Shown here: piece by piece, positions 1 to 9,829 of the stretch
How the letters are laid out: every line of letters begins with the position of its first letter
How positions within the stretch are numbered: the first letter of the stretch is position 1
Source of the DNA: a virus
Lineage: Duplodnaviria > Heunggongvirae > Uroviricota > Caudoviricetes
DNA: 9,829 bases
Virus record (IMG/VR): IMGVR_UViG_2681813261_000006
Strand: one strand, 5' to 3'
Made by a program: the position numbers and the translations under genes
The notes under the pieces: generated by a model
What the model saw: only the letters and a program-made list of their open reading frames with translations
Database searches by the model: none
What the model was told of the DNA's origin: nothing

Positions 1-145
1 ATCGGTTGCACCCTGTATATAAGCCTCATGTTCACTTTTGATTTGATGCAATTTTTCTACTGTATAAGTGAATGGATCTCTATCAACAAGAATATGATCA
101 TTTGCACAAAGCAGGATAAGATTTTCATAAGAATTGTCATTTGCT
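1..145 (-). CDS. Partial CDS: C-terminal part of an HNH-motif endonuclease, cut by the window start and by the N-run at 146
   Basis: Minus-strand frame is open across 1-145 with no start or stop inside, so it is absent from the ORF track. My translation: ANDNSYENLILLCANDHILVDRDPFTYTVEKLHQIKSEHEAYIQGATD. The ENLxLLCxxxH stretch resembles the C-terminal core of HNH nucleases (compare NLQLLCxxCH). The same frame is also stop-free in the 437-524 island, but linkage across the N-run cannot be established. Confidence 0.4.
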
Positions 146-4122: not shown

Positions 4123-7821
<3,699 letters not shown>

Positions 7822-7822
<1 letters not shown>

Positions 7823-8445
7823 TACTTGTATTTCCAGTTCTGATTTTGATTAACTTGACCTAACAGACTAAAGTACTCATCATTTCTATAGTAAGATTGA
7901 TATACTGAGTTGGCGGCAATTAATGCAGGTTGTCTGTCTAATTTCTTATAGACAGAATTCACATATATAGTCATTTCGTTTTGCTTCTGATTTGGATCAG
8001 TTACTGCCTGTACATAGTCAATAAACCCCGTAAACATGAGCATTGAATCAATTACAGTACTATCATATGGATTGAGAATTACTAACTTGATATTCATCTG
8101 TGCATCTTTCAAGAAACCACCAAGGGCAAGAGCACGAACCGAGGCGTTTACATTGCTAATTTTAAAATTGATAGCATCATTAGACATGCCCTTTTGTTCA
8201 GAATATGAAGGTAATGAACCACTGATAATGTCGGGGAAACTTATGTACTTATAACCATCCAGATCTATATCAATTAGTGAATCCGTCCAGTGAAAACCAT
8301 TAGTACCTTTTGGTAGTACATCAAAACAAGTAACATTAACGCCTAAGCTCATAATTTCCATTAGTGTTAATCTTGTCTTGGTTGTACCTCTGACTAACTT
8401 CCAGTACTTAAGAAGATTAGCATTAGTATATATACCTGAGTCCAT
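7822..8445 (-). CDS. Minor tail protein, L-like, 207 aa
   Basis: ATG at 8445-8443 overlaps the M-like stop (TAATG). Segment order loosely parallels lambda gpL (LMEIMSLGVNVTCFDV against LWEIDLTEVGGERYFFCN), but the C-terminal Cys cluster of lambda L is absent. Assignment rests mainly on position between M-like and K-like genes. Confidence 0.5.
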
Positions 8446-9002
8446 TAGATGATATTCTCCGTTGCTTTCAATGTAATATTCATGATGTTCCCAATAGGCA
8501 ATGAATAATCATTGTCTGGATCTAATACAGCCTCGATCATGAGATTGTTATATTTGAGTGCTTCACTTGCCTGTACTGTATTTTGTAGAGCAGGGAAAAT
8601 AGTAATTGAAGTACTGGTACGTTCTACGATTCGATATAGCTTATTGTGATTGGAAAACTGTACCCACTCACCCACAGCTAATGTGTTAGTACTGATAGGT
8701 ACAACCATATTACCCGGTTTAGTGAGAGCAGTAGCGGTTACTGCACCAGTCTGTTTACCGTAATATGTACCTGCAAGCCCCAATGACATAGTGAAAGGTT
8801 TGCCCTGTGCATATTGAGCTAAAAAGCTATTCACTTCATTTAGTGATGCAGGATTAAAATTAAGGGTGAACTGAATTTGATAGTATTGAATTCCAGTACT
8901 TCTCATGATACGTTGACCTGTCCATGTTTGATTAGAATAGATCGGTTCAGTACTTTTAATTTGAAAGTTCGTTACTTTTATTTGATTTGAAAAGGATGCC
9001 AT
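8445..9002 (-). CDS. Minor tail protein, M-like, 185 aa
   Basis: ATG at 9002-9000 with GAGGT (plus 9009-9013) 6 nt upstream. Segment YQIQFTLNFNPASLNEVNSFLAQYAQGKPFTM parallels lambda gpM YSVTLSVPREEATVLESFLEEHGGWKSFLW. First gene of the tail-tip operon in this window. Confidence 0.55.
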   Translation of the reverse strand: MASFSNQIKVTNFQIKSTEPIYSNQTWTGQRIMRSTGIQYYQIQFTLNFNPASLNEVNSFLAQYAQGKPFTMSLGLAGTYYGKQTGAVTATALTKPGNMVVPISTNTLAVGEWVQFSNHNKLYRIVERTSTSITIFPALQNTVQASEALKYNNLMIEAVLDPDNDYSLPIGNIMNITLKATENII

Positions 9003-9102
9003 TTTGTTACCTCGAATATCTTCTTTCTTTATTTATTTAAAAACCTCGATTCGTATTTTTTTTAACAGGCTTGATTGGCAGGCTGCATCCGTCATCGTTG
9101 CT

Positions 9103-9739
9103 ATGTTGTTATTTGCAGGCCAAATAGGCTATAACGCATATGATAAATGGAAAGAAAGTTCAGATGATGTTTTTAAGATGCGTGTAATCTTATTGAGCGA
9201 AATCAANNNNNNNNNNNNNNNNNNNNNNNNNNNNNNNNNNNNNNNNNNNNNNNNNNNNNNNNNNNNNNNNNNNNNNNNNNNNNNNAATAGGCTATAACGC
9301 ATATGATAAATGGAAAGAAAGTTCAGATGATGTTTTTAAGATGCGTGTAATCTTATTGAGCGAAATCAACAATAACCTTTTAGCTCTTGCTACTGGTGGC
9401 GATGAGTCTCAGGTGTTAGGCACATATGAAATATGTATTCCTCTTCCAACTGAAGATACAGAAGCTATTAAAAGAGTAGCAACTGCCGTTTCTTATTTGC
9501 ATGATGATGTATATTATTCCCAATTAGAAAAATTAGCATCACTCCCAAAAAAAGAAGTAGATGCCATCGTAAAGAGTTATTATTCATTATCGAGATTACG
9601 TACTCTTTCAACACAGCTTGCATACAATATTAAATACTCACCACCTAAAGTTAAATTATTGCGGGAAGAGTATTACAATCTCTATACCCTTTCATCTTCT
9701 CTTTCACAATATTTGTCTTATCACACGGAAAATCCCTAA
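9103..9739 (+). CDS. Hypothetical protein, oriented opposite to the tail operon; reading frame interrupted by the N-run at 9207-9285
   Basis: The ORF-track start at 9004 is a TTG one nucleotide from the divergent ATG of the M-like gene, so it is unlikely; the first in-frame ATG is 9103. The two track ORFs (9004..9297 and 9341..9739) join into one frame only if the 84-bp duplicates flanking the N-run are collapsed, giving ...DDVFKMRVILLSEINNNLLALATGG... Stop TAA 9737-9739. No family recognised; no clear Shine-Dalgarno for any candidate start. Confidence 0.4.
9123..9369. repeat. Exact 84-bp direct repeat (9123-9206 and 9286-9369) flanking the N-run; probable unmerged contig overlap
   Basis: Both copies read aataggctataacgcatatgataaatggaaagaaagttcagatgatgtttttaagatgcgtgtaatcttattgagcgaaatcaa; identity stops exactly at the N boundaries. 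Confidence 0.9.
9207..9285. other. Run of 79 N (scaffold gap, probably artefactual)
   Basis: Directly visible; flanked by identical 84-bp sequences. Confidence 0.99.
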
Positions 9740-9829
9740 CTGGGCTTTCTTATGTATTACGTTTTTGACTACTTCTCACAGCTTGAGAAACACTATTGGC
9801 GTGTTTCTTAAGCATCTCATTAAATTTCT

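Follow-up and report, generated by a model that had tools for sequence, protein, structure and literature searches.

The stretch analysed here, referred to below as the window, comprises 9829 nucleotides (nt) of IMG/VR virus record IMGVR_UViG_2681813261_000006 (Caudoviricetes); it is a complete draft scaffold of Shigella sonnei and carries the right half of an AT-rich siphovirus prophage, in which the minus strand holds most genes. At its right end, a plus-strand gene that we call X190 (9004..9739) is located between the 3' end of the tape-measure gene (TMP; 9750..9829, minus) and the gene for Dit, the 185-amino acid (aa) distal tail protein (8445-9002, minus), which is the first gene of the tail-tip block. 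An earlier note made from the letters of this DNA alone had pointed out a plus-strand open reading frame (ORF) opposite to the tail genes, and the gene does fill 9004-9739. The same note had taken a tape-measure gene to be displaced or absent here, which is incorrect: TMP abuts the 3' end of X190 with its stop codon at 9750-9752, and the window includes its last 25 codons (...SVSQAVRSSQKRNT*). Along its whole length, the 737-aa TMP product matches phrog_13674 'tail length tape measure protein' (E=5e-86). The neighbour that had been described as M-like was recognized as Dit by phrog_1302 (E=8e-17) together with a weak match to the pb9 B-domain family PF21430. Lambda M is a distal tail protein, and the label is functionally reasonable, with Dit being the functional equivalent of lambda M.

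As deposited, X190 is split by a false scaffold gap. A run of 79 N (9207-9285) is flanked by an exact 84-nt duplicate, positions 9123-9206 being the same as 9286-9369. Cutting out 9207-9369, that is, the N-run plus the duplicated 84 nt (163 nt altogether), brings the ORFs 9004..9297 and 9341..9739 together as a single reading frame of 190 codons. After this collapse, the 1267 nt that run from 8400 to the end are found unchanged in eight of 10 independent loci, finished 5-Mb chromosomes among them, and the 84-mer is present once in each of the 10. Because of the exact flanking duplicate, the restored frame and the single copy of the 84-mer elsewhere, the gap is a scaffolding artefact in which two overlapping contig ends were joined with N. 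A real tandem duplication of 163 nt is excluded, as it would break the frame and the finished genomes hold only one copy of the 84-mer. We speculate that the 84-nt overlap, which equals k-1 at k=85, would fit un-merged ends of de Bruijn contigs. Resolved against the finished genomes, the N-run leaves one continuous 573-nt gene, 9004-9206 joined to 9370-9739, with a TTG start at 9004 and a TAA stop at 9737-9739. The exact 190-aa protein is found on 347 S. sonnei contigs. In the NCBI annotation of this scaffold, the gene is split into two partial proteins of 67 aa and 150 aa; a trivial scaffolding artefact has been carried into public annotation as two 'partial hypothetical proteins'.

The TTG at 9004 is the sole canonical start codon upstream of Met34. 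It is present at the equivalent position in four lineages, several alleles have ATG instead (for example, MQSPSYYFNIYIK... and MPLRSYYRIYIK...), and the residues from TTG to Met34 are conserved across all homologues, where they complete the hydrophobic helix described below. A start at ATG 9103, used in some annotations and giving a protein of 157 aa, was rejected, as the residues upstream of it belong to the conserved helix and the ATG-start alleles align to the TTG. A Shine-Dalgarno-like AAGGA (8992..8996, plus), conserved in four lineages, is positioned 7 nt upstream of TTG 9004 and falls within the first codons of Dit on the opposite strand. Since the TTG-to-Met34 residues are conserved, the TTG is shared by four lineages and ATG replaces it in some alleles, 9003-9102 is the N-terminal coding sequence of X190 and not an intergenic stretch. 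The earlier note had presented these positions as an AT-rich intergenic region of about 100 bp with a T8 tract. The AT-richness (GC content of 0.34) and the position of the tract (9056..9063, plus) are correct, but the intergenic assignment is not, with the tract making up most of X190 codons 18-20 (I-F-F). The FF pair is conserved in most alleles that occupy the tail slot described below.

One could still regard the ORF as fortuitous and as no gene at all, lying antisense to regulatory DNA within a spacer rich in AT, given that it matches no Pfam family and that no promoter was identified for it. We consider this effectively refuted. All lineages keep the 190 codons open, at 25-87% identity, the ratio of non-synonymous to synonymous substitution rates (dN/dS) of the X gene ranges overall from 0.09 to 0.31, AlphaFold produces a confident fold from only 12 sequences, and profile-profile homology reaches proteins in other contexts. 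The substitution pattern indicates a real gene under purifying selection.

To place X190 among its relatives, we recovered 47 related loci with a Dit profile, at Dit identities from 100% down to 34%, and defined the slot as the interval between the upstream long ORF and Dit; some of the loci are near-duplicates, so that the counts do not represent independent events. The slot is empty in 19 of the 47 loci, with gaps of 42-129 nt (about 240 nt in two of them), and holds an X-family gene in 16 (hidden Markov model E-values of 1e-41 to 1e-84). Another eight loci have a multi-pass membrane protein of the DUF6216 family (203-269 aa), three have an alpha/beta-hydrolase-like DUF726 protein of about 261 aa with a GHSLG motif, and one has the insertion sequence (IS) IS1. 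All protein-coding cargo is oriented opposite to Dit. The interval between TMP and Dit (TMP|Dit) is a polymorphic cargo slot at an operon boundary, and X190 is not a conserved core component. The same-strand order of TMP followed by Dit that is typical of lambda-like phages (H-M-L-K-I-J) is not found in the window, where the opposite-strand X190 comes between the two, and is found in the 19 relatives with an empty slot. The DUF6216 cargo (L027, L033, L043, L058, L061-L063 and L072, at about 4150-5000) and the DUF726 cargo (L035-L037) belong to families that are not in PADLOC. A DUF6216 gene is also located beside retron Eco1 in the P2-like prophage of BL21, where it is bound by H-NS.

The anatomy of the junction shows how the cargo fits into this boundary. 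An empty junction consists of the TMP stop, a GC-rich hairpin with a T-run (-14 to -17 kcal/mol), a TATAAATAC box, about 20 nt, GAGG and the Dit ATG. Occupied junctions retain both the hairpin and the box, with the cargo placed exactly between them. With a terminator-like hairpin and then the TATAAATAC box before Dit in the empty-slot relatives, it is plausible that the M-like gene is the first of its operon, as had been suggested. In the window, X190 is separated by 10 nt from the TMP stop and by 1 nt from the Dit ATG (9000-9002, minus). The Shine-Dalgarno sequence of Dit, GAGGT (9009..9013, minus), is found inside X190 codons 2-4, and the reverse complement of a promoter-like AATAAATAA box (9029..9037, minus), a variant of the TATAAATAC box, codes for IY[IL]K, which is conserved at the X190 N-terminus. 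Our junction comparison shows that every one of the 47 relatives retains the TATAAATAC box approximately 25-35 nt ahead of Dit. The variant box has five copies in the S. sonnei prophage, all on the late strand (L006 3259, 3263, 3801, 7298 and 12211) and none on the other strand; the five boxes are 27-59 nt upstream of gene starts, those of the major tail protein, a chaperone, Dit and the post-J gene. The TATAAATAC/AATAAATAA box may represent a late-promoter-like, phage-specific element, and it resembles the T4 late promoter consensus, TATAAATA. Between the convergent stops of X190 and TMP, an imperfect hairpin (9727..9750) contains the X190 stop in its loop. It folds at -7 to -9 kcal/mol versus -11 to -19 kcal/mol in relatives, and the comparison identifies it as what is left of the terminator-like hairpin found after TMP in every one of them.

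Two pairs of loci indicate that the cassette moves. An empty locus (L064) and an occupied one (L065) have flanks that are 93% identical on both sides, with junctions of 31 and 712 nt, respectively, forming a clean indel. In the second pair (L014 and L016), TMP is 99% identical, Dit 96%, the 207-aa tail protein (p207) 99% and the J-like fibre 97%, with synonymous divergence (dS) of 0.07-0.19, while the X genes are only 43% identical with dS saturated. Homology between these two loci stops at approximately X codon 36 and restarts at the TMP stop. These alignments show that the X cassette has been swapped horizontally between near-identical backbones, independently of the backbone. The proposal of an inserted accessory gene is therefore well supported by a slot that is empty, X-filled or otherwise filled among relatives, as well as by the clean indel and the allele swap.

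Intact full-length X genes were also found in prophage remnants of Citrobacter cronae (87% identity) and an Enterobacter sp. (84%), in which TMP has been cut to its last 75-120 residues and Dit is frame-broken. The dN/dS between these remnants and the S. sonnei X gene is 0.09-0.13. Since the X gene is kept functional amid decaying virion genes, it would serve the host or lysogen and not virion production, and the 19 relatives with an empty slot imply that it is dispensable for the latter. In many S. sonnei genomes, IS elements (HTH_Tnp_1/rve) have broken up the J-like fibre gene and in some cases TMP; such interruptions near the J-like gene were seen in L001-L004, L007, L008 and L010, and X190 is unchanged despite the defective prophage. 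The Citrobacter remnant (L011/L012 5102-11204) sits within a HAD-family (Hydrolase_3) gene near modABC/gal, and the intact relative in L016 (1-611) ends beside the same kind of HAD gene, which suggests a common attachment site.

These observations also bear on whether X190 serves the phage cycle itself, either by regulating the tail-tip operon through its antisense overlap or as a membrane factor for assembly or lysis timing. Such a role would suit the overlap of the X190 5' end with the Dit Shine-Dalgarno sequence and the promoter-like box, and the tight packing between its 1-nt and 10-nt spacers. We regard it as highly improbable, given that 19 of the 47 relatives lack the gene and 11 have unrelated genes in its place, that it persists next to dead tail genes, and that it has homologues outside phages as well. 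A holin or other lysis role was likewise not supported: X190 is not part of the lysis cassette, the endolysin being 6 kb away, and X is absent from many relatives.

The X190 protein is predicted to have a basic N-terminal tail of about 24 residues, a single hydrophobic helix and, in the C-terminal part, about 145 residues that form a four-helix bundle. The helix (WQAASVIVAMLLFAGQIGYNA; codons 25-45, 9076..9138, plus) is predicted to anchor the protein in the membrane and is conserved more strongly than any other segment in the family, as assessed by alignments, hydropathy and the long helix in the AlphaFold (AF2) model. Its conserved core is W-[QE]-A-x-S-V-I-x-A-M-x-L-F, followed by an S/Y-E-I-x-x-N motif, and its Kyte-Doolittle hydropathy is 1.5-2.3 with a basic N-terminal flank. 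The model built with 12 sequences has a predicted local distance difference test score (pLDDT) of 85 and a predicted template modelling score (pTM) of 0.71, and shows a long helix made up of the hydrophobic segment and a stalk, followed by the helical bundle; it was used in place of a five-sequence model that was unusable (pLDDT 50). Net charge summed over 20 sequences (+38 versus -5) favours an N-in/C-out topology. A sequence search of the PDB with X190 had no match, and a profile search of 1.84 billion representatives returned only 11 proteins.

phrog_3829 has no annotated function, and its core is a 197-aa protein from P2-like phages. It gave the best PHROG match, or the only one, for every member tested, including X190 (E=1e-5, residues 21-143), the distant member P0011 (3e-23) and the Peduovirus protein (7e-137). 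Independently built profiles of the tail-slot and Peduovirus proteins (A6 versus A7) align with an hhalign probability of 98.8% (E=9e-17), and the W-x-A-x-S-V-I-x-A-M helix is common to all phrog_3829/X190 members. By these profile comparisons, X190 classifies as a distant member of phrog_3829, about 25% identical to the core over 129 hhalign-aligned columns. For locating loci by sequence patterns, the alignment of the family (A3) was too diverse, and a sub-alignment (A5) was used instead.

In 13 sequenced P2-like phages, X190 homologues occupy the Z-region slot of P2, and the homologue of Peduovirus D8 is located between gpG and gpFI. In P2, the gpG-gpFI interval contains, in order, the V-operon terminator, the opposite-strand fun(Z) and the late promoter pF, and fun(Z) bears the annotation 'cloned gene blocks growth of T5; nonessential; lysogenic conversion' in the P2 record. 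Horizontally acquired genes gather at three loci of P2, the Z-region among them (PMC3091744). More distant members are found in other settings. P0011 is encoded 38 nt downstream, on the same strand, of a ThsB-like TIR protein next to an integrase (L020 7514-10657), and this TIR neighbour matches the PADLOC candidate PDC-S66 (E=2e-112). In L074, listed along with L020 and L073, an integrase is directly followed by the X-like gene. One distant member, on a contig that bears ParA, neighbours a complete Lamassu pair (LmuA/LmuB), another is followed by a Sel1-repeat protein, and a third is a singleton between housekeeping genes. The TIR protein and the X-like membrane protein possibly form a two-gene system; a TIR neighbour was seen for P0011 only, and there is no TIR gene in the window or in the prophage.

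The TIR neighbourhood raises the question of whether X190 is an abortive-infection effector or sensor in the inner membrane, with a cytoplasmic bundle, that responds to an infection cue by itself or together with a partner, collapses the membrane and kills the infected cell. Besides the distant homologue next to the ThsB-like gene, this could draw on Rousset et al., according to whom the transmembrane proteins of known defence systems are believed to be suicide effectors, and the lysine plus arginine (K+R) counts of 56 versus 61 are compatible with a cytoplasmic C-terminal domain. We find it unlikely, as the gene is solitary in both the prophage slot and the Peduovirus Z-region, without a sensor or signal partner, its single hydrophobic helix has moderate hydropathy, and the net charge bias favours a periplasmic bundle.

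Our preferred interpretation, to which we assign a probability of roughly 60%, is that X190 is a horizontally exchanged accessory gene ('moron') of the TMP|Dit slot, expressed in the lysogen, anchored in the membrane and protecting against superinfection. An anti-phage defence or exclusion role is plausible and, from gene context, the best-supported hypothesis. As a kind, prophage cargo at a tail-module operon boundary is known, as in P2 Z/fun, and the protein family of X190 is uncharacterised. A neighbouring possibility is that X190 is a lysogenic-conversion gene outside phage defence, altering envelope physiology, stress tolerance or virulence of the host as lambda Bor and Lom do. Its retention under purifying selection in decayed prophages, its wide distribution in the pathogen S. 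sonnei and the lack of a match to any known defence model would all agree with this. Still, the co-location of family members with TIR/PDC-S66, Lamassu and the exclusion slot of P2, as well as allelic diversity and cassette swapping typical of arms-race genes, make it a rather poor candidate.

Several results weigh against superinfection protection by X190. The profile search of the full protein that the earlier note had proposed led to phrog_3829 and to no Pfam or NCBIfam family. Against PADLOC-DB v2, neither X190 nor most of the scanned relatives had a match at E<=1; for P0007, P0011 and P0015 the scan went no further than E<=0.01, again without matches, and P0008 had noise-level matches only. 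The predicted fold, a generic helical bundle, has no structural neighbour that is informative, and the K+R counts leave the topology ambiguous, with net charge alone favouring N-in. An own promoter, another suggestion of the earlier note, is required by geometry given the opposite strand of X190, yet a promoter scan found no plus-strand sigma-70-like promoter upstream of the gene, and the conserved stretch upstream of X190 in decayed prophages is equally explained by coding constraint on Dit. PDC-S66 is defined as a single-gene candidate, so that the TIR adjacency of P0011 may be mere co-location. Finally, the P2_AC1 lysogen carries a 95% identical Peduovirus homologue. Its separate TIR+TM system was enough to give the whole of the protection that this lysogen has against lambda and LF82_P8 (PMC9122126). 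For T4, P1, 186, CLB_P2, AL505_P2 and T7, P2_AC1 was reported to give no protection beyond that of TIR+TM, in a panel that included no T5-like phages (PMC9122126).

If X190 does protect the lysogen, the layout of the junction suggests how it might operate. With only 1 nt between the X190 start and the Dit ATG, the X190 promoter has to be located within the 5' coding region of Dit, and expression of X190 in the lysogen would be driven from the first ~100 nt of that gene. The protein would be inserted in the inner membrane, with a probable N-in orientation that leaves the bundle in the periplasm, and would shield the lysogen from superinfecting phages, acting most probably at the envelope or during genome entry. 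When the phage grows lytically, the Dit late promoter would fire head-on across the 5' end of X190 and lower X190. As the X190 transcript would in turn run head-on over the Dit box and Shine-Dalgarno sequence, the two could interfere mutually, with X on in lysogeny and Dit on in lytic growth. This head-on geometry of X190 and Dit resembles the 'noncontiguous operon' of phi80 taiEcA (PMC11364771). Taken further, phrog_3829/X190 could be a new single-protein, membrane-anchored exclusion system that has spread as a cassette between the tail-module operon boundaries of unrelated phages, TMP|Dit in this siphovirus lineage and the G|FI Z-region in P2-like phages, and is toggled by head-on overlap in the siphovirus slot. 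We put this forward tentatively and rate it as doubtful; if true, the DUF6216 and DUF726 slot proteins would become further candidate defence genes.

The remaining tail-tip genes of the window, assigned by profile matches, are p207 (7822-8445, minus), a DUF6950 protein (7418-7822, minus) and the J-like central fibre (4123-7425, minus). Full-length copies of the prophage in S. sonnei chromosomes and contigs have a portal, a protease-capsid fusion, two small genes and a fibre with an S74 chaperone, followed by the major tail protein, two chaperone-sized genes, the 737-aa gene, the opposite-strand X190 and Dit, and this gene order is the same in every full-length copy examined. The prophage (L001 7203-10558) has a GC content of 34-44% and is carried on hundreds of S. 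sonnei contigs, and one member of the 190-aa cluster bears an Escherichia coli name. It was absent from 5426 complete E. coli genomes searched by megablast with a TMP-X-Dit query, and 50 697 phage records had no match to 7400-9206 (blastn) or to X190 (tblastn). No close cultured phage was found, with TMP reaching at most 64% coverage and at most 56% identity.

Opposite orientation is not limited to X190 in this module. A phage lysozyme gene (2194-2643, plus) is opposite to all of its neighbours, is kept so in relatives and represents the second opposite-strand gene. Between it and the next late gene is a GIY-YIG SegE-like homing-endonuclease gene (1723-2157, minus; PF19835 E=2e-16). A distance of 6 kb separates X190 from the lysozyme gene and the Rz-like/DUF2730 gene (2682-2954). 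Two other N-runs, 146-436 (291 N) and 525-806 (282 N), are genuine gaps with overestimated sizes; finished genomes have 255 and 151 nt at these places, corresponding to a 97-aa gene and the start of a 264-aa gene. The right arm (L006 15859-16653 and 17169-17890) holds further likely cargo, including this 264-aa gene (partly at window 1-145). The N-terminus of its protein is HNH/Cap4-like nuclease, matching PADLOC PDC-M68A (E=2e-21) and SAVED_HNH effector models, and the Dryocola counterpart matches Pfam AbiGi. The gene that follows it matches mad2/methyltransferase models.

Prophage cargo slots are a productive source of new anti-phage genes, and the TMP|Dit slot of this uncultured enterobacterial siphovirus lineage has three unrelated, uncharacterised cargo families. 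X190/phrog_3829 is tied by homology to the P2 Z/fun locus and by position to TIR and Lamassu genes. It possibly constitutes a new exclusion or defence family, which could explain the presence of the gene in hundreds of sequenced S. sonnei isolates.

Among known systems, P2 Z/fun(Z) comes close in layout to the TMP|Dit slot, as both have an operon boundary in the tail module with a terminator, cargo and the late promoter of the next operon. The fun(Z) cargo of P2 is on the opposite strand, is non-essential and blocks T5, as described in the literature on this slot (PMC3091744). In contrast to X190, Fun(Z) has 528 aa and is without detectable similarity to it (hhalign probability of 0.2%), and the host phage here is an unrelated siphovirus with the slot between TMP and Dit. 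The Peduovirus D8 homologue is co-oriented with the tail genes, unlike X190. HK97 gp15, a moron product that excludes superinfecting phages by acting through the tape measure, is an inner-membrane protein encoded by an add-on gene near the tape-measure gene that is co-oriented with the late genes and much smaller than X190. The two are alike in being small membrane-associated add-on products of the tail region beside TMP, the expression of X190 from the prophage being only proposed, and no sequence relationship was found between them. In phi80, taiEcA is a divergent prophage defence gene that interrupts a late operon, is expressed in lysogeny and is opposed by late transcription (PMC11364771). 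Tai proteins differ from X190 by blocking tail assembly in the cytoplasm, by having a counter-defence gene and by their location upstream of the packaging module, whereas X190 has a predicted membrane anchor, no evident partner gene and a place at the tail-tip junction. A membrane anchor would be expected of superinfection exclusion (Sie) proteins of the HK97 gp15, Sie2009, Ltp and Kunado kind, and in X190 it is predicted from the one conserved hydrophobic helix with its basic N-terminal flank. Kunado (YmfE) of prophage e14 is reported to act as a Sie protein against T5-like infection and to be under silencing by H-NS (bioRxiv 10.64898/2026.09.05.749240). It belongs to another protein family, prophage and locus, and its AlphaFold model has predicted membrane-spanning regions (bioRxiv 10.64898/2026.09.05.749240). 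Kunado and X190 are nevertheless alike in being encoded by prophages, in their AT-rich genes and as membrane proteins, by prediction in the case of X190.

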